From Rhodanobacteraceae bacterium (lineage in GTDB: Bacteria; Pseudomonadota; Gammaproteobacteria; Xanthomonadales; SZUA-5): a stretch of 64,000 nt of DNA. Below the pieces are notes generated by a model. That model was not told the DNA's origin, did no database searches, and saw only the letters and a program-made list of their open reading frames with translations. This document shows positions 23,339 to 51,610 of this stretch, piece after piece. Within the stretch, counting starts at the first letter, position 1; each line of letters opens with the position of its first letter. The translations under genes were made by a program, and so were the position numbers. The stretch spans positions 129 through 64,128 of the forward strand of contig JADKFD010000036.1 in assembly GCA_016717705.1 (NCBI GenBank), in the 5' to 3' direction.

Positions 23339-23658
23339 GGCGAGACCCGTGCTTGGTGACCTGAAGGCGGTGATCTGAGGGCGGCTACTGGCGTCGCGGG
23401 CAGATGCTAGATCGCGATTGTTGCAGTCGTGAGCGAATCGGATCGGCGATCCAGGGCCCCGAGACCGCGATCGGAATCCGAATCCGCGTGAGCGTCCGCG
23501 CGACTGGACTCCGCTGCAGAAAGCGGCGTTGCCGGCCGTCACCGGCTGCAGCGCTGCCCGGCTTGGCGCAACTTGCCGGCATTCCCACGCAGCCCTCCAT
23601 CCTTGCTGCACATTCAGACCCTAAGCTGCGCCACAAGTCTCCCGATGGAAGCCACACC

Positions 23659-35148: not shown

Positions 35149-36882
35149 TCACACCGTCGACCAGATCTCGTCCAGCTCCGCCGACGGCGGCGCTTCGGGT
35201 GCAGCCAGAGTCGCTCCCTGCGCTTGCTGTTCGCCATAGCGGAACTGTTTGTAGGCGCCGGAGTTCTCCACCAGGTCAAGCGATTCCAGCGGCTCGGACA
35301 GCACTCGAAGTTCCATGCCCATGGGATCGGGCAAGCGCAACAATTCGAGTCCACCGGTGGAATCGAGGATCGACGGCGCCAGCAGCGTCGGATGCTGCGA
35401 GCCATCGATCGCCAGCGGCGCCAGCAGCAGCCCGCGCAGAATCACGCGGCTGTTGTGCGCCTCGCTGGTCGCGCGCACCGCGATCGCCTCCACGCGCCGG
35501 CTCAGCAGTTGCACACCGGCCTCCAGGCTGTCGTTGTTGCCCCCCTTGAGCCAGCGCAGCACGCCGACCATCCAGTCGGGCTCATCGTCGTCGTCGGTCG
35601 CCGGCGCCGACAGCGCCACCAACTCACCCACCTTGGCCTTCAGGCCCTCGGCGTTTTCCCAGAACAGGCGGTAGCCACCCAGGCTCTGATCGACCACCCG
35701 GACGCGCAACATGGTCGGGGCCGCCGACTCGGCGCTCGCCTGCGCCCAGGCGGCCGAGCGCTCGCGATCGCTCAGGGTCACACCGCCGCCCAACTCCGCG
35801 ACGAACTCGTTGAAGTCACGCTTGCCGGCAGCCAGATAGTGCACCGCATGCAGACCGATGCAGGAATTCATGTTGTGGTTGGCCGGCAGTCGCGGATGCC
35901 CGCGTTCGCCGCTGAAGCTCCAGGCCACCGTCAACTTCTCGACCACCTCACCGGGCACGTCCGGCCCCAGGCCGAGACGGCCACGCACCGCCACCGGCGC
36001 GTCCAGGGAGGACAGCATGCGCAACTGGTTCTTCAGCGACTGCACCAGACCACTGCTGTCAAGGCGCCAGTAGCGCCCCTCGACTTCGGCGCGCGGCGAC
36101 ATCGGCGGAAGGTCCGAGCGCGGGTCGATGACGAAGGACCCGCTGGTGCCGTTCAGATCGACCCGGCAATGCGTCGACCAGACCTTGGCGGCCGCCTCGA
36201 CATCGACGATTTCCTTCTGCGTCAAGCGATAGGGATTGCCGATGAAGGTCAGCAGCGTCTGCAGGTAGACGCTCTCGGCGGTCAGCGTGATACCGCCGAC
36301 CTGACTGTCGGTCACCGCCTTGTCGGCCAGTTGCGACTCGTAGGCAAACCCGACCAGACGATGCAGCAGGCCCCACACACCGCTCGGTATCTCGCTGTAG
36401 GCGATGTAGCACTTGCTCAGCATCTGCGAGCAATGACAAAGGGCGCGCACCAGCGCCAGCGCGGTGCTGCGACCGCGCAGGAACGGCACATTGCCTTTCG
36501 GCGCGCAGTAGTCATGCACACAGGTGGCAAAACCGACCGCCAGTTCGCGGTGAAAATCGCGCATTACTGCGCCGATCTGGCGCTTCTGCAATGGCAGCGG
36601 CAGCGACTGGCCAAGGACGTGGCGCTCCATGCTGGAGATCACCACCGACACCGGATGGCGCATCTGTTCGAGGATTTCGATGCGCTGATTCGGTTCGACT
36701 TCCAGCTGGTTGAGTTCCTTCAGACCGTTGTACAGCAGGCGCGCGGTGGCGCCGCTGTTGGCCATCGGCAGCGCCTCGATCCACAGCTTGACGGCCTTGC
36801 CAGTGGTCGGAAACGCATCACGACCGGGTCGCTCGCGCTTGGGCAGCGCCCCCCTGAGCAACTCGAACGCGTTGTCAGCCAT
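35149..36882 (-). CDS. large cytoplasmic protein with C-terminal PilZ-like segment (D-x-S-x-G-G)
   Basis: ATG 36882 (AGGGAG upstream). 577 aa. [19 protein letters not shown] resembles the PilZ DxSxxG element, but no clean RxxxR lies upstream. It is divergent from the oxidoreductase gene. Confidence 0.6.
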
Positions 36883-37053
36883 AGGTCCAACTCCCTGCAC
36901 TGGGACTGCCGATGATAACTCGGCAACGGGCAGGCTCGACGGTTTTGCGGCCGACTCGGGTCGATTGAAAATTTAGCACTCATCACCGATTGCAGCCGAC
37001 CCATCCGCATACCTACACTCCACGCCCGGGGATTAGGCACAGGCGGGGCTTTG

Positions 37054-39453
37054 ATGTCGGATATCTTCGAAATTGCAATCGTGGGCTCGGGACCGGGTGG
37101 CATCAGTGCCGCGGCGCGGGCGGCCGAACTCAAGGTGTCGCATGTGTTGCTGGAAGCGGCGCCGCACCTGTCGAACACGATCTATCGCTATCAGAAAGGC
37201 AAGCACGTGATGGCCGAGCCCGAGGCTCTGCCCTTGCGTTCGCCGCTGACCTTCAGCGCCGGCAGTCGCGAGTCGATCCTCGAAGCCTGGGACGAAGGCG
37301 TCGCCAAGCTCGGCGTGAACATCCGTCACGGCGCCGAAATCACCGCGATCAAGAAGCTCGACGACCATTTCGAGCTGAGCATCGGGCGCAAGGACAAGGT
37401 GCTTGCACGCAACATCGTGCTCGGCGTAGGTCTGCAGGGCAACATCCGCAAGCTCGGCGTTCCTGGCGACGACGCGCCCTTCGTGCAGTACACGCTCGAC
37501 GATCCGGACGAGTACGAGGGCGAGACCATCATCGTCGTCGGCGCCGGCGATGCCGCGATCGAGAACGCCGTTGCGCTGGCCAAACAGAACCAGGTCGTCG
37601 TGGTCAATCGCCGCGACGAATTTGCGCGCGCCAAGGAAGGCAATCTGCGCAACATCAGCAAAGCCATCGAGGACGGCGTCATCGAGTGCTACTTCGGCAC
37701 CGCACCCGAGCGCGTCGACAAGTTGTCGGTAGGTCGCAAGCCGGGCCGCTTGATCCTGAATACGCCCAAGGGCCGCGCCCAGGTGCTGTGCGACCGCATC
37801 ATCGGTCGCCTCGGCGCCAATCCGCCGCGCGCTTTCGTCGAGGCCTGCGGCGTGGTGTTCCCGAACGCCGACCCTTCCGCGGTGCCGGCGATCAGCGCCA
37901 AGTACGAGAGCAACGTGCCGGGCCTGTACATCGTCGGCGCGCTCGGCGGCTATCCGCTGATCAAGCAGGCGATGAACCAGGGCTATGAAGTGGTCGAGTA
38001 CATCCTCGGCCGCAGCGTGGAGCCTGCCGACGAACCGCTGCTGCGCGCGAAGTTCCAGAGCATGGCCGGCTTCACTTCGGTTTCCGCGGCGCTGGAGAAG
38101 GTGCAGACCGCGGTGCCGCTGCTGGCCACGATCACGCCGCTGCAGTTGCGCGAGTTCATGATCGACTCGGGTATCCGCACGCCCAAGGCCGGCGAGGTGC
38201 TGTTCAAGCGCAACGACTACACCAACAGTTTCTACTGCATCGTCGAGGGCCAGGTGGAAGTGCTGGTCGACGAAGCCGCCGGCAAGCGCGTGGCGCTCGG
38301 CCCCGGCGAGTTCTTCGGCGAAATGAGCCTGATTTCCGGACGCCGCCGCAGCGCCACCGTGTTCGCCGGCGCCAACTGTGTGCTGATCGAGACGCCGCGG
38401 CGCTCGATGACCAAGCTGATCAACTCGGTCGATGCGGTCAAGAAACTGGTCGACCGCACCTTCGTCGAGCGCGCCATCCGCGCCCGCTTCGGCGACGAGG
38501 CGACCGCGGCGCAGATCAAGGAAGTGGTGTCCGGCGCCACGCTGCAGCGCTTCAAGGCCGGCGAGACGCTGTTCCGCGAGGGCGATGAAGGCGACTGCCT
38601 GCATCTGGTGCGGGTCGGCTCGCTGACCATCTCGCGCACCATCGGCGGCCGCGACATCGTGCTGTCCTATGTACCGGCCGGCAACTACGTCGGTGAAATG
38701 GCGGTGATCGGCGGCAGCAAGCGTTCCGCCACCGCCAAGGCCGCGGTCGCCACCGAGACCATCCGCGTCGAACGCGATGCCTTCCGCAAGCTGATGAACC
38801 AGAACCCGCTGCTGCGGGCGAAACTGGCTCAGGAAGTCAAGCAGCGCACGGCGGAAAACATCACCATGCAGGCCGCCGCTTCCGGCGGCGACATCATCTC
38901 CTTCCTGGTCGGCCAGGGCCTCGGCGAGGCCACCGACGTCCTGCTTATCGACGAATCGCTGTGCGTGCGCTGCGACAACTGCGAAAAGGCCTGCGCCGAG
39001 ACCCACGGCGGCACTTCGCGGCTGGATCGCGAGGCCGGGCCGACCTTCGCCAACGTCCACGTGCCGACCTCGTGCCGGCATTGCGAACATCCCCACTGCA
39101 TGAAGGACTGTCCGGCGGATGCGATCCACCGCGCGCCGAATGGCGAGGTCTACATCGCCGACAACTGCATCGGCTGCGGCAACTGCGAGCGCAACTGCCC
39201 TTACGGTGTGATCCACATGTCGGCCAAACCGAAGAAGAAGCCCGGTCTGCTGCAGTGGCTGCTGCTCGGCGCCGGCCCGGGGCCCGGCGAATCCCCCTAT
39301 GACCCCGACAGCCACGAGAAGAAGGCGGTCAAGTGCGATATGTGCAAGGACATCAAGGGCGGTGCATCGTGCGTGCGCGCCTGCCCGACCGGCGCGGCGA
39401 TTCGCATCAGCCCGGAACAACTGCCTGAATACGCCTTTGCCCGGGGGCCGTAA
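37054..39453 (+). CDS. FAD/NAD(P)-binding oxidoreductase fused to two cNMP-binding domains and a poly-ferredoxin (4Fe-4S) domain
   Basis: Rossmann motifs VGSGPGG and VGAGDAA. cNMP modules FGEMSLISGRRRSATV and VGEMAVIGGSKRSATAKA. Cys clusters CVRCDNCEKAC, CRHCEHPHCMKDCP, CIGCGNCERNCP and CDMC..(x)..CVRACP. No signal peptide. Confidence 0.85.
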   Translation: MSDIFEIAIVGSGPGGISAAARAAELKVSHVLLEAAPHLSNTIYRYQKGKHVMAEPEALPLRSPLTFSAGSRESILEAWDEGVAKLGVNIRHGAEITAIKKLDDHFELSIGRKDKVLARNIVLGVGLQGNIRKLGVPGDDAPFVQYTLDDPDEYEGETIIVVGAGDAAIENAVALAKQNQVVVVNRRDEFARAKEGNLRNISKAIEDGVIECYFGTAPERVDKLSVGRKPGRLILNTPKGRAQVLCDRIIGRLGANPPRAFVEACGVVFPNADPSAVPAISAKYESNVPGLYIVGALGGYPLIKQAMNQGYEVVEYILGRSVEPADEPLLRAKFQSMAGFTSVSAALEKVQTAVPLLATITPLQLREFMIDSGIRTPKAGEVLFKRNDYTNSFYCIVEGQVEVLVDEAAGKRVALGPGEFFGEMSLISGRRRSATVFAGANCVLIETPRRSMTKLINSVDAVKKLVDRTFVERAIRARFGDEATAAQIKEVVSGATLQRFKAGETLFREGDEGDCLHLVRVGSLTISRTIGGRDIVLSYVPAGNYVGEMAVIGGSKRSATAKAAVATETIRVERDAFRKLMNQNPLLRAKLAQEVKQRTAENITMQAAASGGDIISFLVGQGLGEATDVLLIDESLCVRCDNCEKACAETHGGTSRLDREAGPTFANVHVPTSCRHCEHPHCMKDCPADAIHRAPNGEVYIADNCIGCGNCERNCPYGVIHMSAKPKKKPGLLQWLLLGAGPGPGESPYDPDSHEKKAVKCDMCKDIKGGASCVRACPTGAAIRISPEQLPEYAFARGP

Positions 39454-39455
39454 CG

Positions 39456-40349
39456 ATGCATGACTCAATCCTCGACTATCGCGGCTTCCGCTATCTGTGG
39501 GTGGCGTTGATCCTGTCCATCGGGTCGATCGTGGCCTACCTCTGGCATGACCCGATCGGCGTGCCCAACGGCGGATCCTGGCTGGGCTACACGCTGGGCA
39601 CCATCGGCGCCCTGCTGATCCTGTGGCTGCTCTGGTTCGGCGTGCGCAAGCGCCGCTACTCCGGCGCCACCGGCAGTGTGCGCGGCTGGTTGTCGGCGCA
39701 CGTGTATCTGGGCACCACACTGATCCTGATCGCCTTCCTGCACGCGGGCTTCCAGGTTGGCTGGAACATCCACACGCTGGCACTGGTGCTGATGCTGCTG
39801 GTGATCTTCAGCGGCTTTTTTGGTGTCTATGCCTACCTGCGCTATCCGGCGATGATGACGCGCAATCGCGCCGACAGCACCCGCGACGCAATGCTTGCCG
39901 AGATCCGCGAACTCGACGGACAGACGTTGCAACTCGCCGACAAGGTCGACAAGAGCATCCACGATGCGATCTTGAGTTCGATCCAGCACAGCCAACTCGG
40001 CGGCGGCGTCTGGGCACAATTGACCCGGCGCGACGATTCGGCAATCGCCCTGGCCAAGCTCAAGGAAGCAGTACTGAAGTCCAACGGCGAGTCCAAGCAA
40101 TCGAAGTCCGGCCAGACCATGGTGATGATGGTGGATTTCCTCGCCAATCAGGCCAACGATACCCAATCGGAAAACCTGCGACGGCTGATCGACCTGGTCT
40201 CGCGCAAGCGCGCACTCGCCACCCGCGTGGCCCGCGACATCCAGTTGCAGGCGCTGATGGAAATCTGGCTGTACATCCACATTCCGCTGTCGCTGGGATT
40301 GCTCGGCGCATTGACCGCGCATGTGCTGTCGGTGTTTTTCTACTGGTAG
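39456..40349 (+). CDS. 5-TM membrane protein with two H-x13-H motifs (candidate di-haem b carrier)
   Basis: Starts 2 nt after the upstream stop. TM3 SAHVYLGTTLILIAFLHAG and the C-terminal TM YIHIPLSLGLLGALTAHVL each carry His-x13-His. A ~140-aa helical soluble insert lies between TM4 and TM5. Confidence 0.75.
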   Translation: MHDSILDYRGFRYLWVALILSIGSIVAYLWHDPIGVPNGGSWLGYTLGTIGALLILWLLWFGVRKRRYSGATGSVRGWLSAHVYLGTTLILIAFLHAGFQVGWNIHTLALVLMLLVIFSGFFGVYAYLRYPAMMTRNRADSTRDAMLAEIRELDGQTLQLADKVDKSIHDAILSSIQHSQLGGGVWAQLTRRDDSAIALAKLKEAVLKSNGESKQSKSGQTMVMMVDFLANQANDTQSENLRRLIDLVSRKRALATRVARDIQLQALMEIWLYIHIPLSLGLLGALTAHVLSVFFYW

Positions 40350-40381
40350 TGGGCGTTGTTTTCTTGCGGCTTTTCGCCGAT

Positions 40382-40473
40382 TGGTAAAACGTGAAAGGTG
40401 AAACGTGAAGAAGAGCGCGCGAATCGCATCCGTTGCAACGAAGTCCAATTTACGTTTCACGTTTCACGTTTTA
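40382..40473. repeat. inverted repeat with tandem GTGAAA(C/G) arms
   Basis: Left arm GGTAAAACGTGAAAGGTGAAACGTGAAG. Right arm TTTACGTTTCACGTTTCACGTTTTAC. It lies in the gap between the membrane-protein gene and the FHA-cytochrome gene. Confidence 0.9.
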
Positions 40474-40520
40474 CTGACTGCCCAGCAAAGTGACGTCCAG
40501 GCGAAGGGAGCCGGCACACC

Positions 40521-42233
40521 ATGAAATGGTTCATTCGCCGCGTCATCAAGAAGGGCAAGGGCAGCCTGCAGTTCGAGGAGGAAATTCATTTTGGCGAAAC
40601 CCTGACCATTGGCCGCGCTGCCAATCAGGCCATCTTCATCAACGATCTGCGCGCGGCGCTGGAACATGCCCGCGTGGTCGCGCTGGGCAACGGCCGTTTT
40701 CGCGTCGAATCGCTGGTGGCTGCAGGCGTCCGCATCGATGGCCGCTTCGAACATTCGGCCACGGCGACTGCAGGCAGCGCCATCGAGGTGGGCAACCTGC
40801 GCATCACGCTGGTCGACCCGCCGGCGGATTTCGAAGCGGCGGTCGAAGTGGGTCTGGTCGACAAGGCCGAAGTTGCCGCGCGCGAAGTATCCGAGGCGCT
40901 GCCGCAATCGCTGGCCGAAACCGGCCTGCGCAAACGCCGCTGGTCATGGGCCCTGCTGCTGTTGACGCTGACATTCGGACTGGCGATTCCGGTGACCGCG
41001 CATTTCGTGCCCACCTTGCGCTCGCTGACCAAGGATGTGCCGGCGATCGGCATGTCGACCTGGGACACCGGGCCACTGGCGTCGGCCCACCACACCATGG
41101 CCAACGACTGCCAGAGTTGTCACGGCACGCCGTTCAGTGTCATTGCGGACGACAAATGCATCGTCTGTCATACCAACACCAAGGCGCACGCCGATCCGGT
41201 GCGTTATGCATTGCCCGAAATTGCGGCCGCTCGCTGCGCCCACTGCCATCGCGACCACAACGGCGACACCGGACTGGTGCGCGCCGACCAGGAACTGTGC
41301 AGCGACTGCCATCGCAATCTGACCGAGCGCGTGAACAACGATACGCAATTGGCCAATGTCGGCGACTTCGGCACCGACCATCCGCAATTCAAGGTGCTGC
41401 TGCCGGCCTGGGACGCGCAGGGCAAGTTCACGCCCGAACGCGTGAGCATGGACCAGAAGCCGCTGACCGAGCGTTCCGGCCTCAAGTTCCCGCATTCCAA
41501 GCACCTGAACCCCGAAGGCCTGAAGACGCCCGACGGTGTGAAGAAGCTCGATTGCGCCAACTGCCACGCGCCCGAACCCGGAGGCGCGCTGCTGGCGCCG
41601 ATCGATTTCGAGCAGCATTGCCAGTCCTGCCATCGCCTCGATTTCGATCTGCGCATTCCCGACCGTCAGGTGGTCCACGGTGACGTGGCGGAGGTGCAAT
41701 TCACGCTTGCCGAGTTCTATTCCAAGGTGGCGCTGGAAGGCGGCTACGATGACGTCAAGGCACCGGTATTCGTGCGCGAACGCCGTCGTCCGGGGCAACC
41801 CGCGATGACCGCGCAGGAACAGCGTGATGCCCTGGTCTGGGCGCGCGACAAAGCCACCGAGATGACCGACTCGCTGATCAACAGCCGCACCTGTACCGTC
41901 TGCCATACGGTTTCCAAGGACCCGGCGGCCACCCAACTGGGCTGGGTGGTTGCGCCGGTACGCGTGGCCGGCGCGTGGTACGAGAAAGCCAGCTTCACGC
42001 ATGCCAAACACGCCACCATGGGCTGCAAGGACTGCCACGCGGCAGATCTCTCGCTGAGCAGCGCCGACCTTTTGATCCCGGATATCGGCGCGGTCGGTTC
42101 CAACAATGCCGTGGCACCTTACGCCTGCCGTGACTGCCACGGCGGCGAGAATGCCAAGCACAAGCTGGGCAGCACCTGCATCGATTGCCACGGATTCCAT
42201 CAGGCGCCGATGCCGTTGCGAGCCGCCAAATAG
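40521..42233 (+). CDS. FHA-like domain / single TM / decahaem c-type cytochrome
   Basis: ATG 40521 (GAAGGGAG upstream). N-terminus ...LTIGRAANQAIFINDLRAALEHARVV...VRIDGR...IEVGNLRITL is FHA-like, with some canonical residues substituted. TM segment WSWALLLLTLTFGLAIPVTA. Ten CXXCH: CQSCH, CIVCH, CAHCH, CSDCH, CANCH, CQSCH, CTVCH, CKDCH, CRDCH, CIDCH. Confidence 0.85.
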   Translation: MKWFIRRVIKKGKGSLQFEEEIHFGETLTIGRAANQAIFINDLRAALEHARVVALGNGRFRVESLVAAGVRIDGRFEHSATATAGSAIEVGNLRITLVDPPADFEAAVEVGLVDKAEVAAREVSEALPQSLAETGLRKRRWSWALLLLTLTFGLAIPVTAHFVPTLRSLTKDVPAIGMSTWDTGPLASAHHTMANDCQSCHGTPFSVIADDKCIVCHTNTKAHADPVRYALPEIAAARCAHCHRDHNGDTGLVRADQELCSDCHRNLTERVNNDTQLANVGDFGTDHPQFKVLLPAWDAQGKFTPERVSMDQKPLTERSGLKFPHSKHLNPEGLKTPDGVKKLDCANCHAPEPGGALLAPIDFEQHCQSCHRLDFDLRIPDRQVVHGDVAEVQFTLAEFYSKVALEGGYDDVKAPVFVRERRRPGQPAMTAQEQRDALVWARDKATEMTDSLINSRTCTVCHTVSKDPAATQLGWVVAPVRVAGAWYEKASFTHAKHATMGCKDCHAADLSLSSADLLIPDIGAVGSNNAVAPYACRDCHGGENAKHKLGSTCIDCHGFHQAPMPLRAAK

Positions 42234-42403
42234 GCGCTTGAATCGGGAGTGCGGCGCCAGTCGCCGCCTCCCGGAAGCCCGCAGGCGCTGATGGGGGGTG
42301 CGGGGCTTCTGGCCGACCCAGATCAGCAGCGGCGCCGCAGTCGCTGCGCCCTGCAAACGCACCCAAGCGCCTGCCAGCCGACCACTCCAAAATGCTCTTA
42401 CTT

Positions 42404-42507
42404 GGGGCGGTGGCCAGCCACCGCCCCCTACACGACAAAGCGCCGGCAAGCCGGCGCTTTGAAGGAGCCTGAACCCCCGGAAGCGGCCAGCGGACCGCCT
42501 CCGGGGG
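42404..42507. terminator. three consecutive GC-rich hairpins between convergent genes
   Basis: GGGGCGGTGG-CCAG-CCACCGCCCC (42404-42427). AAAGCGCCGGC-AA-GCCGGCGCTTT (42437-42460). CCCCCGGA..GCGG...CCGC..TCCGGGGG (42474-42507). Confidence 0.6.
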
Positions 42508-42514
42508 ATCACGC

Positions 42515-43552
42515 TCAATGCACGTTTGAACCAAAGTGCGCGCGGCAACCGCGATCCACCCACAAGCCACGGCGCGGCGTGTATCCCCAGGTCACGCCTT
42601 CGATGCAGGATTGACGCGAATACTGTTCGATCAGCACTGGCGTCCCGAAACGGGCATTCCAGCTGCACAGGGCATAGGCCCCGTCGAGACTTGCGCAGTC
42701 CATGGTGAAGCCGTCGTAATCGTCGGCGTCATAAAAACCGCCGCTCGGGCGATAGGCCTCGGCGAACACGCCGCCGCAACCGCGATCGACCCAGATCACA
42801 CCCGGCTTCTGACCCCAGGTGCGGCCTTCCACACACAGACTGCTGCGCGGAACCTGGCGCAGCAATTCAACCTGGCCGCGGAAGGCCACGTTGCATTCGC
42901 GATAGCCACGCACGCTCTGACAGGTGACTTCCGGAAGCTGACCGACCACCGGTGCCGATTCGATGAAGCGCGCACGGCAACCGCCGTGAACCCAGACCAT
43001 GCCCGGGCGATGGCCCCAGTTGCTGCCTTCAACGCAGCGGGTCGACGACAGTTGGCGCTCGATCACCGGAACATTGCGAAAACCGGTCGCACATTCGCGA
43101 TAGCGACCATCATTGGACTCGCAGGCGACGATCTGTCCACGCCCGGGGGGCTGATTGGTCCAACCCGGCGTGGTCCACCGCACCGGGGGCGGCGGCGGCG
43201 AGGGCGTGCCCGCATAGGTGTTGCCATCGACTCGATCGCGCAGCGATTGCGTCATGTCGTCTGTGATCTGCGCATAGGTCCAGCCACGCGGAATCTGTTC
43301 CAGGTAGAACTCCAGCTGGTCTTCCGGCAACGGACGGCCACCGGACAATTCGGCGAATTGCGCCTCCAGCACGCGCACCTGCTCCGGCTGCGTCAACTTG
43401 CGCAAGTCCTCAGGCGCGTACTTTGCGTTCGGCTCCTGAACCGCGGGCGTCTTGCCACTGGGTGTCTGCGCAAAGGCCAGGGGCATCGATGCAAACGTCA
43501 GTAACAGCAATGCGAGCGTGCTTGCCTTCAAAACGGTCGCTGCAAATCTCAT
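42515..43552 (-). CDS. secreted DUF3011-type Cys-repeat protein
   Basis: Signal peptide present. There are three repeats of the C.S..G.YREC.....V.L..Q.S...C.EG..WG.....(I/V)WV..GCRA.F pattern. Confidence 0.75.
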   Translation of the reverse strand: MRFAATVLKASTLALLLLTFASMPLAFAQTPSGKTPAVQEPNAKYAPEDLRKLTQPEQVRVLEAQFAELSGGRPLPEDQLEFYLEQIPRGWTYAQITDDMTQSLRDRVDGNTYAGTPSPPPPPVRWTTPGWTNQPPGRGQIVACESNDGRYRECATGFRNVPVIERQLSSTRCVEGSNWGHRPGMVWVHGGCRARFIESAPVVGQLPEVTCQSVRGYRECNVAFRGQVELLRQVPRSSLCVEGRTWGQKPGVIWVDRGCGGVFAEAYRPSGGFYDADDYDGFTMDCASLDGAYALCSWNARFGTPVLIEQYSRQSCIEGVTWGYTPRRGLWVDRGCRAHFGSNVH

Positions 43553-43879
43553 GTCACGTCTCCAGGGACTGCGCTCGGCGAACAGCCGCGCGGGAAACTC
43601 ATGTTAGCGCGGGTCCTGAGCCACGGTATGTGCGGCAGCAAACGCAGTTGGTTGCGCGACAGCTTGGGAAATCGGAAGCCCTCCCCCGGCGAATCTGTAG
43701 TGCGTTCCACGGCATTGCCCGCAGGGATCTGGAGATCGCCGCCGCTGAAGGCAAAAGCGTATTGATTGAATTGATATCCTCAGTCCACGCAAACGACGTG
43801 AATCCGAGGTTATGATCTGGACGCCGCGCATGACTCCGGGGGGAGCCATCGGCGCATAGAACTTCTGGGAGGGTGCACG

Positions 43880-45925
43880 ATGGCTTTCAGACGCATGCAC
43901 GGCTTGGCGTTGGGGATTGCAGTTGCCCTGCTCGCCGGGTGCGGAGGTGGCAGTGGCCGCGACACGACCGGCACGGCGCCGCCGCCCAACGCCCCATCCG
44001 AGGGTTGCACCGGCAGTTGCGCTGGAGCGGAATCGCGCCTGACCGTCGCCGACGTGCAGACGGTGATCGCGCAGGCCGTGGCCGAAGCCCAGGCCAACAA
44101 CCTGCCCGCCACCATCGCGGTGGTCGACCGTGTCGGCAATGTGCTCGGTGTCTATCGGATGACCAACGCACAGCCCACGGTTGCGATTCACTCCGAGCGC
44201 GATGTCGCCGGTGGTCTCGAAGACCTGATCGTGCCGTCGGAGCTCGCCGCGATTGCCAAGGCGATGACCGGCGCCTACCTGTCGAGCGAAGGCAACGCTT
44301 TCACCACCCGGACAGCCAGCCAGATCGTCCAGCAGGCCTTCAATCCGGGCGAGAGCAATGCGCCTTCAGGACCGTTGTTCGGCGTGCAGTTCTCGCAACT
44401 GCCCTGTTCCGACTTCATGACCCGGTTCCAGACCGGACAAGCGGCCGGCCCCGGCCCGCGGCGCTCGCCGCTCGGACTGTCGGCGGACCCGGGCGGTTTT
44501 CCGCTGTACAAGAATGGTGTTCCGGTCGGCGGCATCGGCGTTGCCGCTGACCCCGACTACACCCTGGACGCACGCATCTTCGATCGCGACCGCGACGTCG
44601 ACGAGATGATCGCGCTTGCCGGTACCTTCAACTTTGGCGCGCCAGTCAACCGCCGCGCCGACGCGATCACCGCCGATGGCAAGACCTTCCGCTACAGCGA
44701 CGTCGAATTCGCCGATCTGGCGCGCACACCGGGCAATGCGCCGGCGCTCACCGCGACAATGGGCGCATTCATTAAGGTGCCGGCCTATGCCGACGCGATT
44801 CCGCGCGAAGGCACCGCGTTTGGCACGGCCCTGTCGGGTATCCGCGCGGCCGGCAGCGAACTGTCGGACCTCGACGCCTTCATCGTGGTCGATGCCGCCA
44901 ACCAGAATCGCTATCCGGCGCGCGCCGGCACCGATGGCAGCGGCGCGCTGAGCGCCAACGAGGCACAGACCGTGCTGCGCGAAGCGCTCAAGGTCGCCAA
45001 CCGCGCCCGCGCGCAGATTCGCCAGCCGTTTGGAACGCAGGCGCGCGTCAGTGTTTCGGTCGTGGACACCAACGGCGCGGTGCTGGCACTGGCGCGCACC
45101 CGCGATGCGCCGGTGTTCGGCCTCGATGTTTCCCTGCAGAAAGCGCGTTCGGCGATGTTCTTTTCCAATGCCAACGCGGCGGCGGGACTGAACAGCCTGC
45201 CGAATCCAAGCTATTTCGGCGACACGGTGAACCTCGGTGCGACCCCGCCGGAAGTGCGCTTGCGCACCGTCGGCACGGGCACTCTGAGCACGACGGTGGC
45301 GCGCACCCGCGAGTTCCTCGGTTCAGCCACGGCGCTCGCCGACGGCGCCATCGCATTCAGCGACCGTGCGATCGGCAATCTGGCACGGCCGTACTATCCG
45401 GACGGCATCACCGGCCAAGCGGCGGGCCCGTTCAGCAACGAATTCAATTCCTGGAGCCCATTCGACGTCGGGCTGCAACTGGACCTGGCCTACAGCCAGA
45501 TCGCGCTGCACGTAGCCCACTATCTCAATCAGGCTGGACTTGCGCTGTACCTGGATGGGCAACTGCTGGCGCCACCGCCTTCGACCCAGAATCCGGTTCC
45601 GCTGCCCGATATCGGCTTCAACTGCACCGGGTTGCCCAGCCTCGCCAATGGCATCCAGATCTTTCCCGGCGCGGTGCCGATCTACCGCGGCGATCGCCTG
45701 GTCGGTGCGATCGGCGTTTCCGGCGACGGCGTCGATCAGGACGACATGGTGTCCTTCCTCGGTTTGCACAACGCCAGCGTTGCGCTGAACGGTGCCATCG
45801 GCCATGCGCCGACGACGCGTCGAGCCGATCTGCAGGTCCCACGCGGTGCGCGACTGCGTTATGTGCAATGTCCGCAGGCGCCTTTCATCGACTCCACCGA
45901 ACAGAACGTGTGCGAGGGCAAGTGA
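43880..45925 (+). CDS. lipoprotein with two GlcG/DUF336 (haem-degrading-like) domains
   Basis: Canonical lipobox ALLAGC. First domain ...ATIAVVDRVGNVLGVYRM...GGFPLYKNGVPVGGIGVAAD. Second domain ...VSVVDTNGAVLALARTRDAP...IFPGAVPIYRGDRLVGAIGVSGDGVDQDDMV. Confidence 0.75.
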   Translation: MAFRRMHGLALGIAVALLAGCGGGSGRDTTGTAPPPNAPSEGCTGSCAGAESRLTVADVQTVIAQAVAEAQANNLPATIAVVDRVGNVLGVYRMTNAQPTVAIHSERDVAGGLEDLIVPSELAAIAKAMTGAYLSSEGNAFTTRTASQIVQQAFNPGESNAPSGPLFGVQFSQLPCSDFMTRFQTGQAAGPGPRRSPLGLSADPGGFPLYKNGVPVGGIGVAADPDYTLDARIFDRDRDVDEMIALAGTFNFGAPVNRRADAITADGKTFRYSDVEFADLARTPGNAPALTATMGAFIKVPAYADAIPREGTAFGTALSGIRAAGSELSDLDAFIVVDAANQNRYPARAGTDGSGALSANEAQTVLREALKVANRARAQIRQPFGTQARVSVSVVDTNGAVLALARTRDAPVFGLDVSLQKARSAMFFSNANAAAGLNSLPNPSYFGDTVNLGATPPEVRLRTVGTGTLSTTVARTREFLGSATALADGAIAFSDRAIGNLARPYYPDGITGQAAGPFSNEFNSWSPFDVGLQLDLAYSQIALHVAHYLNQAGLALYLDGQLLAPPPSTQNPVPLPDIGFNCTGLPSLANGIQIFPGAVPIYRGDRLVGAIGVSGDGVDQDDMVSFLGLHNASVALNGAIGHAPTTRRADLQVPRGARLRYVQCPQAPFIDSTEQNVCEGK

Positions 45926-45926
45926 C

Positions 45927-47720
45927 ATGAGCCTCTGTCTCTCCGCCGCTTTGGCCGCGCTGATGTGCCCGGCCGCCCTGCCCGCCAATTCGATGTCCAG
46001 CGTGCAGCCGATGATCGGCCATTCGCTGCCGGCCTATCTGTACGATCCGGACCAGTCGAGCGTCGTGCGCCGGCGTCCGGGCCATCCAGCGCCCGGACCG
46101 CGCACCCGACCCGACCAGAATCCGGGCAACGCCGACCCGGCGCCGATCGACGCGGTCGGTGAATTCGTCCCGGTGCCCGATCGCTGGCGCCTGATGGAGG
46201 CGCTCGGCTTCAAGCACCCGTGGTACGACCCGTACAACCAGAATATCTGGAAGGGCGACAAGCCGATCAACGAGGATGAGTGGTTCCTCAGTCTGCTGGC
46301 AGTGTCCGATACGCTGCTCGAACCGCGCTCGCTGCCGACGCCGGTGGGTGCGCAGTCGAGCGCCAATCCAGGCGCCGTGGACATTTTCTCCGGCTTCGAT
46401 CAGACCATTTTGTCGCAGACAGTGCTCGCGGGTCTGGTCTATTACAAGGGCAATACCACCTTCAAGCCGCCCGAATACGAGTACCGCCTGACGCTGGCGT
46501 TGAACTACAACCGCGTCGAAGTCGACGATGTGCGCGCGCTCACCATCGATCCGCGCAAGGGCACGGTGCGCGACGACGGCTTCATCGCGGTGCAGGAAGT
46601 TTTCGCCGACTTCCATTTGCGCGATGTTTCGCCGCGCTATGACTTCGATGCGATCCGCTTCGGCATTCAGCCCTTCTCCAGCGATTTCCGCGGCTTTCTG
46701 TTCCAGGATCTGCAGTTCGGCGTGCGCCTGTTCGGCAACCGCGACAACAACCACCGCCAATACAACCTGGCGTGGTTCCGCCGCGTCGAGAAGGACTTGA
46801 ATTCCGGTCTCAACGACGTCGCCGAGGGATTGCGCGACGACGATGTGTTCATCGCCAACTACTACTGGCAGGACCTGTTCGGACTGCTCGGTTTCACCTC
46901 GCAGGCAGTCGTGGCCTACAACCGCAATCGCGAGGACGAACTGTTCTTCGATTCCAATGGCTTCATCCAGCGACCATCCTCGATCGGCACCGAGCGTACC
47001 CGCGAATACGATGCGGTCTACATCGGCTACAACGGCGATGGCCACATCGGCCGCTTCAATCTATCGACCTCCGCCACCTACGTCTTCGGCGACAACGACA
47101 ACACCTTCACCGGCGAGAACAGCGATATCGCCGCCGGCTTCTTTGCCGCCGAACTGTCGCGCGACTTCGACTGGATTCGCCCGCGCCTGTCGATCGCCTA
47201 CGCCAGCGGCGACGACGATCCTTTCGACGACAAGAGCAACGGTTACGACGCGATCTTCGAAAACCCGATCTTCGCCGGCGCCGACACCAGCTACTGGATC
47301 CGCCAGAACATCCCGCTGATCGGTGGCGGTGGCGTCGCCCTCTCCGGGCGCAACGGGTTGCTGCCGTCGCTGCGCCCGTCCAAGGAACAGGGACAGTCGA
47401 ATTTCGAGAATCCGGGCCTGCACCTGATTGGCATTGGCGCCGATTTCGACATCACGCCGGAATCGCGGGTGTCCTTCAACCTCAACCAGCTGTGGTTCGA
47501 CGACACCGCGGTGCTCGAAGTGGCGCGCAACCAGGCACCGATCGACAAGGAGATCGGCACCGACCTGTCGGTGGCCTGGATCTGGCGCCCGTTCATGAGC
47601 CAGAACGTCGTCGTGCGACTGTCCGGCGCCCTGCTCGAACCCGGCAGCGGCCTCGAAGACCTCTACGGCGAACGCGACCCGTTCTACACCGTGTTGGGCA
47701 ATGTGATTCTGACGTACTGA
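45927..47720 (+). CDS. outer-membrane beta-barrel protein (porin-like)
   Basis: ATG 45927, 1 nt after the upstream stop. Signal MSLCLSAALAALMCPAALPA. Abundant alternating-hydrophobic strands. The C-terminus ...YTVLGNVILTY ends in an aromatic residue. Confidence 0.7.
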   Translation: MSLCLSAALAALMCPAALPANSMSSVQPMIGHSLPAYLYDPDQSSVVRRRPGHPAPGPRTRPDQNPGNADPAPIDAVGEFVPVPDRWRLMEALGFKHPWYDPYNQNIWKGDKPINEDEWFLSLLAVSDTLLEPRSLPTPVGAQSSANPGAVDIFSGFDQTILSQTVLAGLVYYKGNTTFKPPEYEYRLTLALNYNRVEVDDVRALTIDPRKGTVRDDGFIAVQEVFADFHLRDVSPRYDFDAIRFGIQPFSSDFRGFLFQDLQFGVRLFGNRDNNHRQYNLAWFRRVEKDLNSGLNDVAEGLRDDDVFIANYYWQDLFGLLGFTSQAVVAYNRNREDELFFDSNGFIQRPSSIGTERTREYDAVYIGYNGDGHIGRFNLSTSATYVFGDNDNTFTGENSDIAAGFFAAELSRDFDWIRPRLSIAYASGDDDPFDDKSNGYDAIFENPIFAGADTSYWIRQNIPLIGGGGVALSGRNGLLPSLRPSKEQGQSNFENPGLHLIGIGADFDITPESRVSFNLNQLWFDDTAVLEVARNQAPIDKEIGTDLSVAWIWRPFMSQNVVVRLSGALLEPGSGLEDLYGERDPFYTVLGNVILTY

Positions 47721-47727
47721 GGCGCTC

Positions 47728-50700
47728 ATGAAGCTCACGACGATTTCCGCATTGCTGGCGCTGGTGATCGGAGCGACCAGCCTGTCGCAGGTGGCTCTTG
47801 CCTCGGGCGGCGAAACGCCGGTGGACCGCGTCTACACCAAGGCGCCGGATGCCCCGAAGAACCAGACCTGGGCGCAGGCCGACGCCAAGAGCGCCGGCTG
47901 CATGAGCTGCCACAATCCGATCGACCAGAAATCCATGCACGCCTCGGAAGCGGTGGTGCTGGGCTGCGTCGACTGCCACGGCGGCGATCCGACAATCCAC
48001 GGGCCCAAAGACGGGAACGGGCACGTCGCCAGCGCCCCGGGACATGGCAACGAAGGCGAACACGGCCACGCGGCTGCCGCCTATGGCCCCGAGTACACGG
48101 CGGCGATGGAACAAGCACATGTGCTGCCGCGCTATCCGCACACCTGGCACTACCCGAGTTCGGCCAATCCCGAACGCAGCTACACGCTGTTGAATCGGGA
48201 AGCACCCGAGTTCACCCGCTTCGTCAACCCGAGCGATCTGCGCATCGCCCATGAGGCCTGCGGCGCCTGCCACATGCCGATCATCGAGGCGCCAAGCGCT
48301 CGATCATGGCCACCAGCGCCATGCTCTGGGGTGGTGCTTCCTACAACAACGGGATTTTGCCCTACAAGCGCTACATCCTCGGCGAAGGTTACGAGCGCGA
48401 TGGCGAGGCCGCGATCATCAAGGCGCTGCAGCCAGTCACGCCGGACATGGCCGTTAAGGGCGCGCTGGAGCAACTGGTGCCACTGCCGGCCTGGGAAGTG
48501 ATTCCGCCGGGCGACGTCTTCCGCGTGTTCGAGCGCGGTGGCCGCAACATCAATACCACCTTCCCGGAAACCGGATTGCCGAACTCACTGGGCCAGATTC
48601 AGCGCCTTGAGGAACCCGGGCGCCCCGACTTCAAGCAATCCAATCGCGGCCCGGGTACCGGTCAGCGCATCGGCGTGCCGGTGATCAACATCACCAAGAC
48701 CCGCCTCAATGATCCCAACATGTGGTTCATGGGCACCAACGACCAACCGGGCGACTTCCGCCAGTCCGGCTGCAGCGCCTGTCATGTGCCTTACGCCAAT
48801 GATCGCGATCCGCGCCACTCCGGGCCCTACGCGCAGCACGGCCACATGGGCCTGAGCCAGCAGTCCGACCCGACCATCCCGAAGGACCAGCCCGGACACC
48901 CGCTGAAGCACGCCTTCACGCGTTCGATCCCGACCAGCCAGTGCATGAACTGCCACATGCACCAGCCGAACATGTTCATCAACACCTTCCTCGGCTACAC
49001 CATGTGGGACTACGAGTCCGACGCGCCCTTCATGTGGCCGGAGAAGCAGCAGTACCCGAGCCACGACGAGATGCGCAAGGCGCTCGACCGCAACCCGGAG
49101 GAAGCGGTGATCCGTGGCAAGTGGGCCGACCTGGAATTCGTCAAGGAAGTCTCGGCGCTGAATCCGCAGCTGAAGGACACCCAGTTCGCCGACTACCACG
49201 GCCATGGCTGGAACTTCCGCGCCATCTTCAAGCGTGACCGCAAGGGCAACCTGCTCGACGCCGAAGGCGCCAAGGTTTCCGACGACGACCCGAAGAAGTT
49301 CGAGAAAGCCGTGCACATGTCGAGCATCCACGTCGACCTCGGCTTCCATTGCGTCGACTGCCACTTCGCCCAGGACATGCACGGCAACGGCCATATCGTC
49401 GGCGAAGTCGCCCAGGGCGTCGAGATCCAGTGCAAGGACTGCCATGGCACGCCGGACGCCTATCCGAACCTGATCACCTCAGGTCCGATGGCCAGCAAGC
49501 AAGGCCGCAACCTCGGCGACCTGCGCAATCCGGACGGCAAGAAGCGCTTCGAGTGGATCGACGGCAAACTGATCCAGCGCTCGATCATGGAAAGCGGGCT
49601 GCAGTGGGAAATGTCGCTGGTCAAGGACGTCTCCGACAAGGCCAGCCCGGCCTACAACGCCAAGGCCGATCGCGCGCACACCATGCGCAAGGATCCGCTC
49701 AACCAGAGCTACGGATCAGACGTGCCGCCAGCGAGTACGCGCATGGCGAGGACAAGATGCTGTGCTTCAGCTGCCACACCAGCTGGACCACCAGCTGCGG
49801 CGGCTGCCATCTGCCGATCCAGGCCAACTGGAAGACCGAGCGCCATCATTTCGAAGGCGGCGAGACGCGCAACTACGCGACCTACAACCCGCAGGTCGCG
49901 CGCGACGACGTGTTCATGCTGGCCAAGCATGGCGAGGCCAAGGGCTACAAGTACGCGCCGATGCGTTCGTCCAGCGCCCTGATCCTGTCGTCGACCAACT
50001 CCAACCGCGAGCGCATCTACATCCAGCAGCCGCCGATCGCGGCTTCCGGCTACAGCTCGCAGGCTCTGGCACCGCACTATCCGCACACCGAGCGCCGCAC
50101 CGAAACCAAGACCTGTACCGATTGTCATCTGTCCCAGGAAGGCGACAACAACGCCATCATGGCCCAGTTGCTCGGCCAGGGCACCAAGTTCATGGACTTC
50201 CTCGGCTTCAATGCCTGGGTCGGCGGCGAAGGCGAGATCAGCGCCGTGCGCGTCACCGAATGGGAAGAGCCGCAGGCGGTGGTCGGCAGCTATCTGCATC
50301 GCTATGCCTACCCCGACTGGTACAAGAAGCACGAGGACAACGGGCGCCAGCTGACCGAGGCCTACAAGCATTCCGCGGGCGTGGCCAACTGCATCCAGCT
50401 GCGCGGCGAGTACGTCTACGTGGCCGAAGGCAGCAAGGGCTTCCGGGTCTACGACGCGGCCAGCATCGCCAACAAGGGCATCAGCGAACGCATCATCACC
50501 GCACCCTTCTCGCCGCTGGGCCACGACACCCACATCGACACCAAGAACGCCACTTGTGTCGTGCTGCCGACCACGCAGCCGGTGCAGCCCTCGCGCAACG
50601 AGGGCGATCTGATGCGCAAGGTGAACCTGGAACAGCCGGCGCATCCGATCTACCGCTATGCGTTCATCAGTGATGCCGAGGAAGGCCTGATCGTGGTCGA

Positions 50701-51610
50701 CATCGACACGCTGCACGATGGCGAACCGCGCGACAATTTCCTCGAGCGCGCACTGACCTGGAACGAGAACGGCGTACTGACCGGCGCCCGCCATCTGACC
50801 ATCGCCGGCTACTGGTTCTACTTTGCGACGCCCAAGGGCATCGTCGTGGTCAACATGAATGACCCGCTGAAGCCGCAATACGTGCGCACCGTGGATCTGC
50901 CGGATGTGCGCGGCAGCCAGCAGCAGTTCCGCTACCTGTTCGTGACCACCGGCCGCGGACTGGAGGTGGTCGACATCACCCATCCGGACAAGGCCTATGT
51001 CGTGGCCGATGCCTACGTGCCGATCAAGGACGCACACAAGGTGCACGTCGCGCGCACATACGCCTACGTCGCCGCCGGAGCCGAGGGGCTGGTGATCGTC
51101 GACATCACCAAGCCGGTGAAGCCCGTGCTGTACCAGCGTTTCGACGGCGGCGGCGCCATCTCCGATTCGCGCGACGTCACGGTGGCCTCGACCAATGCCT
51201 CGCTGTATGCCTACATCGCCGACGGTCGCAACGGATTGCACGTGGTGCAACTGACCGGCCCGGACATCCAGCCGAAGTTCTACGGCTACAGCCCGGAACC
51301 GATGCCCAAGCTGATCGCCAGCTACGCCACCGGCAAGGCGGCACTGTCGCTGTCGGACGCCCTGGAACGCGACCGCGCGGTCGATGAAACCGGCGGCCAG
51401 ATCTCGGTACTTGGCCGCATCGGCGCACGTCCGTTGAACGAGGCCGAGCAGCGCGCTTTCTTCCTCGATACCAACGGCAACCCGTGGTTCGTCAGCGACA
51501 AGGTCGATGGTCCGCGTGGAATCACTTCGCCGGTGCTGCCGCGCAAGAACAACCGCACCTACGATCAGCAGCGGGCCGAGGCGGCAAAACCGGCTGGCTC
51601 GCCGCACTGA
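47728..51610 (+). CDS. secreted decahaem c-type cytochrome fused to LVIVD-repeat beta-propeller; two frameshifts as sequenced
   Basis: Three ORFs (47728..48501, 48306..49982, 49349..51610) join at about 48286-48293 (...CHMPIIEA/KRSIMATSAMLWGG) and about 49722-49732 (...NQSYGSDVP/ASEYAHGEDKMLCFSCH). Signal peptide present. Ten CXXCH: CMSCH, CVDCH, CGACH, CSACH, CMNCH, CVDCH, CKDCH, CFSCH, CGGCH, CTDCH. The C-terminal half has GLIVVDI, GIVVVNM, GLEVVDI, GLVIVDI and GLHVVQL. Confidence 0.8.

Follow-up and report, generated by a model that had tools for sequence, protein, structure and literature searches.

A conserved gene trio predicted to carry electrons from NAD(P)H to a decahaem cytochrome in a Rhodanobacteraceae bacterium

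We analysed a window of 64,000 nucleotides (nt; G+C ~64%) on contig JADKFD010000036.1 of a Rhodanobacteraceae bacterium (assembly GCA_016717705.1), whose nearest relatives are metagenome-assembled genomes (MAGs) of Rhodanobacteraceae/Lysobacterales. It carries three genes, here called G1, G2 and G3, that encode a flavo-iron-sulfur protein with cyclic nucleotide-binding domains, a polytopic membrane protein and a decahaem cytochrome c (Table 1). An earlier reading made from the letters alone (the sequence-only reading) had described three co-directional genes, the first two separated by 2 nt, and had proposed that they form an electron path from NAD(P)H through flavin adenine dinucleotide (FAD), iron-sulfur (FeS) clusters and haem b to multihaem c. 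The open reading frames (ORFs) lie exactly where it placed them, and each protein is full-length relative to its homologues. G2 and G3 are separated by 171 nt. Because scans for promoters and terminators gave nothing above background, operon boundaries are drawn from spacing and synteny: a consensus scan of positions 36700-44000 found no sigma-70-like promoter, and terminator-like matches in that interval were no more numerous than in shuffled sequence.

Table 1. Features of the conserved cluster, in window coordinates; functional labels are predictions.
Feature	Position (nt)	Strand	Protein length or residues	Description
G1	37054-39453	+	799 aa	cytoplasmic flavo-iron-sulfur protein
G1 FAD + NAD(P)H domain	37069-37983		aa 6-310	TrxR-like/YpdA-like; Pyr_redox_3/2 (Pfam)
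G1 CNB-A	38107-38475		aa ~352-474	cNMP_binding
G1 CNB-B	38500-38853		aa ~483-600	cNMP_binding
G1 FeS domain	38941-39423		aa 630-790	four-cluster, 16 Cys; 4Fe-4S dicluster families
G2	39456-40349	+	297 aa	inner-membrane protein with five transmembrane segments, putative di-haem cytochrome b
AT-rich hairpin	40383-40477	+		~28-bp stem, GTGAAA-unit inverted repeat, within G2-G3 spacer
G3	40521-42233	+	570 aa	bitopic decahaem cytochrome c
G3 FHA-like domain	40569-40826		aa 17-102	cytoplasmic, weak FHA matches
G3 transmembrane segment	40953-41009		aa 145-163	single
G3 ten-CXXCH domain	41088-42200		aa ~190-560	periplasmic
DUF3011 gene	42515-43552	-		between G3 and HbpS-like gene
HbpS-like putative haem-binding lipoprotein	43880-45925	+		HbpS-like E 3e-27, three repeats; lipobox LLAGC
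Porin-like outer-membrane protein	45927-47720	+	~597 aa	signal peptide, C-terminal ...VILTY
Secreted decahaem cytochrome c with C-terminal LVIVD beta-propeller	47728-51610	+	~1290 aa in relatives	

G1 joins a flavin domain, two cyclic nucleotide-binding (CNB) domains and an FeS domain in one polypeptide. The sequence-only reading had given it two dinucleotide-binding motifs, two modules for cyclic nucleotide monophosphates (cNMP), four Cys clusters and no export signal, and all of these were found. The flavin domain matches Pyr_redox_3/2 of Pfam (E 5e-27 and 4e-22), carries the motifs GSGPGG and GAGDAA, and has YpdA (Bdr) and a TrxR-like ferredoxin-NADP reductase as its nearest sequences in the Protein Data Bank (PDB). 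Two stretches match cNMP_binding (Pfam E 6e-41); here the nearest PDB sequences are the tandem CNB domains of PKA-R/PKG. The 16 Cys of the FeS domain fall into four groups (CxxCxxCxxxC, CxxCx4CxxxCP, CxxCxxCxxxCP and CxxC...CxxxCP). This domain matches Fer4_11 (PF13247; E 1.4e-9, 38.5 bits, cut-off 26.2) and the four-cluster DmsB/NrfC/HydN/HycB type, a membership at the level of the domain only, as it reaches no NCBIfam equivalog cut-off; the nearest PDB sequences are HycB (E 2.7e-15), HycB3, HycB4 and ArrB. Across 11 diverse homologues (40-73% identity) the FeS Cys are invariant (16/16), and the dinucleotide motifs, an NRRDEF motif and the CNB cassettes GE...R[ST]A show little or no variation. 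G1 is predicted to have no signal peptide and no transmembrane (TM) segment. Because of its domains, its conserved Cys and motifs and this absence of export or membrane signals, we read G1 as a probable cytoplasmic NAD(P)H:FeS oxidoreductase, whose CNB tandem, set between the flavin and the FeS chain, would be regulatory.

Two enzyme identities were tried for G1 and rejected. Its score against thioredoxin-disulfide reductase (TIGR01292) is 59.7 bits, with a cut-off of 343, and it is without the redox-active CxxC, no CxxC occurring in aa 1-330 of the flavin domain. Against the YpdA bacillithiol-disulfide reductase (TIGR04018) it scores 114 bits, with a cut-off of 340; where YpdA has GPCG, with its conserved N-terminal Cys, G1 has GPGG. 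The G1 stretch GAGDAAIENA...NRRDEFARAK resembles the NADPH-specific HRRxxxR motif of TrxR, and NRRDEF suggests NADPH as the electron donor.

The second gene had been read as a polytopic membrane protein with four suitably spaced His. By hydropathy and the positive-inside rule, G2 is predicted to have five TMs in an N-in/C-out arrangement, with 5 and 21 Lys+Arg in its cytoplasmic loops and 0 in the periplasmic ones; a cytoplasmic helical insert of ~140 aa separates TM4 and TM5. The four His form two H-x13-H pairs, H82/H96 and H275/H289, and a fifth, H106, is additional. H82 in TM3 and H275 in TM5 are both placed five residues in from the cytoplasmic boundary, and H96 and H289 are found at the periplasmic one. 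None of the five His varies in alignments of 34, 40 and 12 sequences. When 120 homologues with identity down to 31% are compared, there is still no variation at H82, H96 and H106, and conservation of H275 and H289 is 90% or higher. An AlphaFold2 model from the 120-sequence alignment is all-helical (pLDDT 89, pTM 0.83); a shallow alignment (34 sequences, at least 63% identity) gave pLDDT 60 and was unusable. Two bis-His haems stacked across the membrane are the geometry of bc1-complex cytochrome b and of NOX. We infer, with good support from this His pattern and topology, that G2 would bind two haems b, one in the cytoplasmic half (H82+H275) and one at the periplasmic edge (H96+H289).

With its five near-invariant His, G2 represents a conserved family of 5-TM proteins that goes unrecognised in current domain databases. 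Counted as representatives in a library clustered at 50% identity, the family comprises 2172 clusters at E<=1e-3, 641 at 1e-10 and 232 at 1e-30. A Pfam scan of the 120 homologues showed a weak but recurrent likeness to di-haem cytochrome b families, with matches to cytochrome b561 (PF01292) in 74 (E<=0.1, best E 3.8e-8), to DUF4405 in 19 and to Ferric_reduct (PF01794) in 7; UniRef gives one homologue the name 'Ferric reductase like transmembrane component'. The window protein itself scores below the PF01292 cut-off (E 0.1, 12.8 bits, cut-off 30.1) and has no match to PF01794 even at E<=10. The family thus appears to sit at the edge of the di-haem cytochrome b clan, with a fold that would be a distinct branch.

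These family affinities bear on how electrons would cross the membrane. G2 could instead react with quinone, as the di-haem cytochromes b FdnI and HydC and the b-domain of CbcL do, with electrons passing through the quinone pool; G1 and G2 would then act as an NAD(P)H:quinone oxidoreductase, G2 and G3 as a quinol:multihaem-c dehydrogenase, or both. Characterised PF01292 members bind quinones, and it is PF01292 for which the G2 family has its weak Pfam affinity. A four-cluster FeS module combined with a di-haem b subunit is also what systems of the FdnH/FdnI and HybA/HybB type have, and the invariant H106 and the N104 region are conserved without an assigned role. The His ligands of G2, however, are distributed 2+2 on two helices, as opposed to 1+1+2 in FdnI, and G2 has no significant similarity to any solved quinone-reactive cytochrome b. 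The strict coupling of G1 to G2 and of G2 to G3, together with the G1-G2 fusion described below, also points to one dedicated chain. We consider a quinone-coupled role unlikely, though the most probable of the alternatives weighed here.

The third gene had been described as an FHA-like domain in the cytoplasm, a single TM and ten CXXCH motifs beyond it, and this layout holds, the FHA likeness being weak. Because the motif LRKRR precedes the TM, the N-terminal domain is placed in the cytoplasm. The haem region has cytochrome c3/c7-type Pfam matches. Neither its ten CXXCH nor about ten additional His vary among 27 homologues. Among distant homologues ten CXXCH are present in 9/10, and a Magnetococcus protein has eight CXXCH and one C(3-4)CH. 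G3 is not a member of the MtrA/DmsE decahaem family (TIGR03508; 17.6 bits, cut-off 192.2).

The N-terminal 100 aa of G3 match the Pfam FHA family weakly (PF00498; E 0.015, 16.1 bits, cut-off 20.7), as they do YscD_cpl (E 0.014). The best PDB match is the FHA structure 3gqs (E 0.002), with GarA and OdhI weaker, and some G3 homologues carry PF00498. The domain has the GR and the His of the S-x-x-H motif; the Ser is replaced by an invariant Ala46, the Asn of NG is absent, and the GR pair is often lost in distant homologues. The sequence-only reading had electron flux controlled in part by phospho-protein signalling. With neither the Ser nor the Asn that serve as phosphothreonine ligands, the case for phospho-dependent signalling through this domain is weak, and classical phosphothreonine reading by G3 is doubtful. 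By analogy with YscD-type proteins, it is at least as likely that the domain serves as a cytoplasmic docking or assembly module.

We assessed linkage in a genome set, made up of 80 loci of GTDB species representatives and a further 10 of distant relatives, and in a metagenome set of 80 loci (G2 identity 45-99%). The locus scan used alignments A1 and A6, the diverse alignment A2 being too variable. G3 directly follows G2 in every testable locus (83/83 genome and 41/41 metagenome, 124/124 together). G1 lies upstream of G2, at a distance of at most 5 kb, in 113/116 loci, which comprise 71/73 genome loci (64/73 directly) and 42/43 metagenome loci. Ten invariant CXXCH in G3 and a gene order kept in more than 100 independent loci greatly exceed what chance would give. 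The claim that the three genes are a unit is further borne out by a MAG of Magnetococcus sp. YQC-9, where a single protein of 1110 aa combines G1 and G2, and a G3 homologue comes next. Such a Rosetta-stone fusion is consistent with an FeS domain placed in the cytoplasm beside the N-in TM1 of G2.

The trio is kept in distant lineages. This, like the conservation of the G2 His, speaks for the sequence-only reading, which had named variable His and a trio absent elsewhere as grounds for refutation. The trio occurs in Lysobacterales, Sphingomonadales, Burkholderiales and Magnetococcales, and the loci include a Pseudomonadales MAG, marine and freshwater Burkholderiales and unassigned marine contigs. 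Cultured hosts are Dokdonella immobilis, several Tahibacter species, Sphingobium herbicidovorans (where the trio is on a megaplasmid) and Zhongshania; Haliea, Halioglobus, Zhongshania and Pseudohongiellaceae contribute MAG-derived members. RefSeq names the Sphingobium proteins 'cyclic nucleotide-binding domain-containing protein', 'hypothetical protein' and 'cytochrome c3 family protein' for G1, G2 and G3.

Domain content, residue conservation, topology prediction, gene linkage and gene fusion are direct evidence, and from them we favour, with modest confidence, a reading of the trio as the inner-membrane core of a quinone-independent export chain from NAD(P)H through FAD, FeS and haem b to haem c. 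The cofactor order proposed by the sequence-only reading fits the predicted topology. NAD(P)H would be oxidised at the TrxR-like flavin domain of G1, which works without a redox disulfide in this scheme, and electrons would pass along its own four [4Fe-4S] clusters. The FeS domain would dock on the cytoplasmic face of G2 and reduce the inner haem b at H82/H275, from which electrons would cross the membrane to the periplasmic-side haem at H96/H289. That outer haem would in turn reduce the ten-haem periplasmic domain of G3, anchored by its TM beside G2. Here and in most relatives, electrons could continue to the HbpS-like lipoprotein, the porin-like protein and the surface decahaem-LVIVD cytochrome. 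Cofactor occupancy, the individual transfers, outward flow, the final acceptor and any effect of cNMP are inferred.

The position of the CNB tandem suggests that it would most likely gate electron transfer, namely the step from FAD to FeS in response to cAMP or cGMP. Cyclic-nucleotide control of flux, also put forward in the sequence-only reading, is plausible and fares better than its phospho-protein counterpart: the phosphate-binding cassettes look intact, apart from the marine proteins discussed below. Second-messenger control is supported because cNMP-related genes adjoin the trio in other taxa.

Those neighbours are a CHASE2-guanylate/adenylate cyclase, metallophosphoesterases, TPR proteins and a CRP-family regulator (L091 12442-16252; L090 6552-7253; L094 6543-9295 and 14660-15508). 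The cyclase is accompanied by a metallophosphoesterase, and the metallophosphoesterases are possible phosphodiesterases. Among the ten large ORFs of the window outside the cluster there is no cyclase or phosphodiesterase.

Two classes of signalling domain (cNMP-binding and FHA-like) are thus built into the trio proteins, and cyclase, phosphodiesterase-like and CRP genes adjoin it in some taxa. Such features would suit a redox sensor in place of a bulk pathway, with the G3 haems reporting the redox state of the periplasm or the outside and the FHA-like domain and the cNMP-binding FeS flavoprotein integrating the signal. We give this reading little credence. By Pfam and NCBIfam the trio has no output domain (kinase, cyclase or DNA-binding), and the flavin/NAD(P)H site, the 16 FeS Cys, the four haem-b His and the ten haem-c sites are strictly conserved. 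This conservation and the linkage to a porin and a second decahaem cytochrome are what a conduit needs.

Several observations weigh against a dedicated, cNMP-gated export chain. The window G2 has no significant Pfam or NCBIfam match; a Foldseek search of its model against the PDB returned nothing better than E 0.2, and the family profile hidden Markov model found among PDB sequences coiled-coil noise on the cytoplasmic insert only. Because these PDB profile and Foldseek searches were empty, haem b binding rests on the His pattern and on weak family-level matches. G2 may also have a quinone site. The cassette Arg of the CNB domains is degenerate in two marine G1 homologues. G1 is missing at L022 and L025 despite room upstream of G2, and at L102 there is none within 4.4 kb upstream. 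Two 1-nt deletions relative to the closest relative, L005, one near 48288 and the other near 49728, split the large outer cytochrome gene of the window over three frames. Finally, the sole published hypothesis for a homologous neighbourhood has electrons flowing inward.

In a Rhodanobacteraceae sublineage (L022 5317-9578, L025 and L102) G2, G3 and the outer module are kept with rimO directly upstream of G2; L022 has a transposase-like gene further upstream of rimO, and G1 was relocated or lost in this sublineage. In L021, L032, L035, L058, L063 and L074 (Dokdonella, Tahibacter and other Lysobacterales) G1 is 3-4 kb upstream of G2, which implies a gene or element inserted between them.

We propose an outward direction because of thermodynamics and the sign of the membrane potential. 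Flow out from NAD(P)H (about -320 mV) is downhill and aided by the membrane potential; reduction of NAD(P)+ from periplasmic haem c is uphill in potential and works against the membrane potential. Outward flow is also in keeping with hosts that are mostly aerobic heterotrophs. In principle multihaem chains can run either way, and G3 could conversely take electrons from outer-membrane or periplasmic donors, for example Fe(II) oxidases, and deliver them through G2 to quinone or to FeS/FAD. The porin-cytochrome-like outer module would serve such uptake as well, and a matching trio in an Fe(II) oxidiser was expressed in every condition tested (bioRxiv 10.64898/2026.01.22.701106). Uptake is nonetheless remote, the least probable of the alternatives weighed here: most hosts are aerobic heterotrophs (Dokdonella, Tahibacter, Sphingobium, Haliea, Zhongshania), the trio is without an energy-coupling subunit, and the motifs of G1 are those of an NAD(P)H-oxidising flavoprotein of the TrxR-like ferredoxin-NADP reductase or YpdA type.

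What is, judged by architecture, the same trio has already been noticed in two preprints and was never characterised. The Fe(II) oxidiser is Ferrigenium straubiae, whose nonahaem NHC has one TM and a cytosolic FHA domain and adjoins a 5-TM protein (no InterPro match) and a [4Fe-4S] protein; the neighbours of that trio are nirK and an SHP-like gene, and the gene identifiers printed for its three members are 28784098774, 28784098775 and 28784098776. Its authors took the 5-TM protein for a non-redox scaffold, with inward flow to quinone, and described FHA-multihaem fusions as previously unreported (bioRxiv 10.64898/2026.01.22.701106). Compared by description, both loci pair a one-TM multihaem cytochrome c bearing an FHA domain with a 5-TM and a 4Fe-4S protein, none with a signal peptide; they differ in that G3 has ten haems and NHC nine.

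The second preprint describes ptdABCDEFG of marine bacteria, in which PtdE is a cNMP-binding 4Fe-4S protein, PtdF a ferric-reductase-like TM protein and PtdG a periplasmic decahaem cytochrome. The cluster also encodes a pentahaem protein with a beta-sandwich (PtdA), an FAD/NAD(P) oxidoreductase (PtdC) and a tetrahaem protein (PtdD), and its authors call its function 'completely unknown' (bioRxiv 10.1101/2023.11.21.568154). The preprint gives PtdE two FeS clusters and does not mention haem b, an FHA domain or a flavin domain in PtdE (bioRxiv 10.1101/2023.11.21.568154). By architecture, the window appears to have the three protein types of ptd in E-F-G order, along with a porin and further multihaem cytochromes; G1 shares the cNMP_binding match and the Fer4 families, and the third gene has ten CXXCH. 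The resemblance of the window trio to deposited Ptd proteins (for example PtdE MBT5131324, PtdF MBT5131323 and PtdG MBT5131322) was judged by architecture only. For the middle gene, at the place of the ferric-reductase-like PtdF, the window G2 is without a Pfam match, some relatives weakly match PF01794 (7/120) or PF01292 (74/120), and one homologue bears the ferric reductase name in UniRef. The outer module here (HbpS-like lipoprotein, porin-like protein and decahaem-LVIVD cytochrome) also differs from that of ptd. No plausible 4- or 5-haem gene lies in the window, where the 3- and 4-CXXCH ORFs are frameshifted decahaem pieces. The hosts here are soil and wastewater Lysobacterales, as opposed to the marine taxa of ptd. 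Neither preprint recognised G2 as a haem b carrier.

Better-studied systems share parts of the predicted path. NOX, FRE and MsrQ also move electrons from cytoplasmic NAD(P)H through a flavin and two stacked bis-His haems b to an acceptor outside, and G2 resembles them in having two His pairs on two helices, spaced by ~13 residues and in register across the bilayer. Unlike NOX, G2 has five TMs, not six, is without a PF01794 match, and gave no Foldseek match to NOX or MsrQ. The flavoprotein here is of the TrxR type and a separate polypeptide, with four FeS clusters and two cNMP domains in between, and the acceptor would be a multihaem c. Modules such as FdnH/FdnI, HybA/HybB, Geobacter CbcL and the Tmc/Hmc complexes of sulfate reducers likewise combine a four-cluster ferredoxin-like module, a membrane cytochrome b and a periplasmic multihaem c. 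The G1 FeS domain is nearest to HycB, HydN, ArrB, NrfC, DsrO and HmcB, with all NCBIfam scores far under their cut-offs. In contrast to FdnH/FdnI-type modules, the FeS module of the window is predicted to be cytoplasmic and shares a polypeptide with an NAD(P)H flavoprotein, the arrangement of the His ligands is different, and the trio has no catalytic molybdopterin or NiFe subunit. With MtrCAB/PioAB the window shares the look of a trans-envelope haem wire, made up of a porin-like protein, a large secreted decahaem cytochrome and the decahaem G3. It differs in a porin without a recognised family, in the extra HbpS-like lipoprotein and LVIVD propeller, and in a proposed input of NAD(P)H in place of quinol through CymA.

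Known Gram-negative routes of extracellular electron transfer start from the quinone pool (CymA, ImcH, CbcL). If the export chain is as we propose, a path that starts directly from NAD(P)H and crosses the inner membrane by way of two haems b would differ from them in its entry point. Such a path would dissipate energy but be quick, which suits redox balancing, reductive metal acquisition or the production of reactive species. Two cNMP-binding domains within the electron path would also be a rare case of a second messenger acting on a respiratory-type wire. A bolder version, which we put forward tentatively as a possibility, is a quinone-independent, NADPH-fuelled and cyclic-nucleotide-gated 'split NOX' that combines a TrxR-like flavoprotein and four FeS clusters with a new di-haem b fold and a decahaem c, feeding a porin-cytochrome conduit in many aerobic Proteobacteria. 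This system could be a missing enzymatic source of extracellular reduction in bacteria not deemed electrogens; candidate acceptors would be Fe(III), Mn, humics and O2 (to superoxide), with the second messenger as an on/off switch. The family is large, with cultured, tractable hosts, members in marine oxygen-deficient zones and expression in an Fe(II) oxidiser. The hypothesis is directly testable because the family is present in cultured tractable strains and is expressed in that oxidiser.

The trio is the inner part of a six-gene system, and the interval singled out by the sequence-only reading covers half of the conserved cluster. Where the flank is long enough to tell, the outer module is found with the trio in 42/52 genome and 23/29 metagenome loci. 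In marine relatives the start codon of the HbpS-like gene overlaps the stop codon of G3; some lineages have the trio alone, and another has a C554-like cytochrome, a multihaem cytochrome and an unknown protein instead. RefSeq calls the Sphingobium HbpS-like orthologue 'heme-binding protein'. The porin-like gene begins 2 nt past the HbpS-like stop codon and is syntenic between the HbpS-like and large cytochrome genes; its product has weak matches only (Alginate_exp E 0.004, DESULF_POR1 E 0.001). The large cytochrome matches Cytochrome_C7 and LVIVD of Pfam (E 2e-19). As leads for this LVIVD/multihaem protein, the Tenderiales uet cluster and a preprint on extracellular electron transfer in peat proved unrelated. 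Because the DUF3011 gene is limited to the window and its four closest relatives, it is read as a lineage-specific insertion that split an ancestral operon.

The two deletions in the window gene for the large cytochrome are likely assembly indels more than pseudogenisation. The gene is a single ORF of 1209-1360 aa with 10 CXXCH in Dokdonella immobilis and eight other loci, and runs past the locus end in L005, L006, L009 and L011. Assembly error is favoured, and a true pseudogene judged less likely, because the housekeeping gene sucA (2-oxoglutarate dehydrogenase E1; 55619-58476) in the same window is also split, into two overlapping frames that cover the N-terminal domain and E1_dh from profile position 120 onward.

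In marine, Burkholderiales and Sphingobium loci (L087 20329-, L090 20297-, L091 5145-6566, L092 12547-13947 and L094 24389-) the outer module repeatedly includes a further member, a cytochrome c554-like multihaem protein of ~420-470 aa, which the window lacks. This protein may be the counterpart of the tetrahaem PtdD.

The AT-rich hairpin between G2 and G3 is built on a motif with 4 matches against 0.25 expected and is unique within the window; the whole 171-nt spacer (40350-40520), hairpin included, has a predicted fold of -62.8 kcal/mol (z -2.8). In more distant relatives the spacer is ~10-20 nt and the inverted repeat is absent. The hairpin may be an element of RNA processing or stability or a small inserted repeat.

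Divergent from G1 is a gene for a 583-aa protein (35149-36900, minus strand) with no Pfam or NCBIfam match. It is syntenic, with ispG beyond it, in ~49 Lysobacterales loci and does not occur there in other orders; it could be a local regulator or merely a conserved neighbourhood. Some 12 kb upstream of the trio, at 23374-25308, the window encodes a di-haem cytochrome c peroxidase/MauG-like protein with two CXXCH, and at L093 a CCP_MauG gene and a cupredoxin adjoin the trio.

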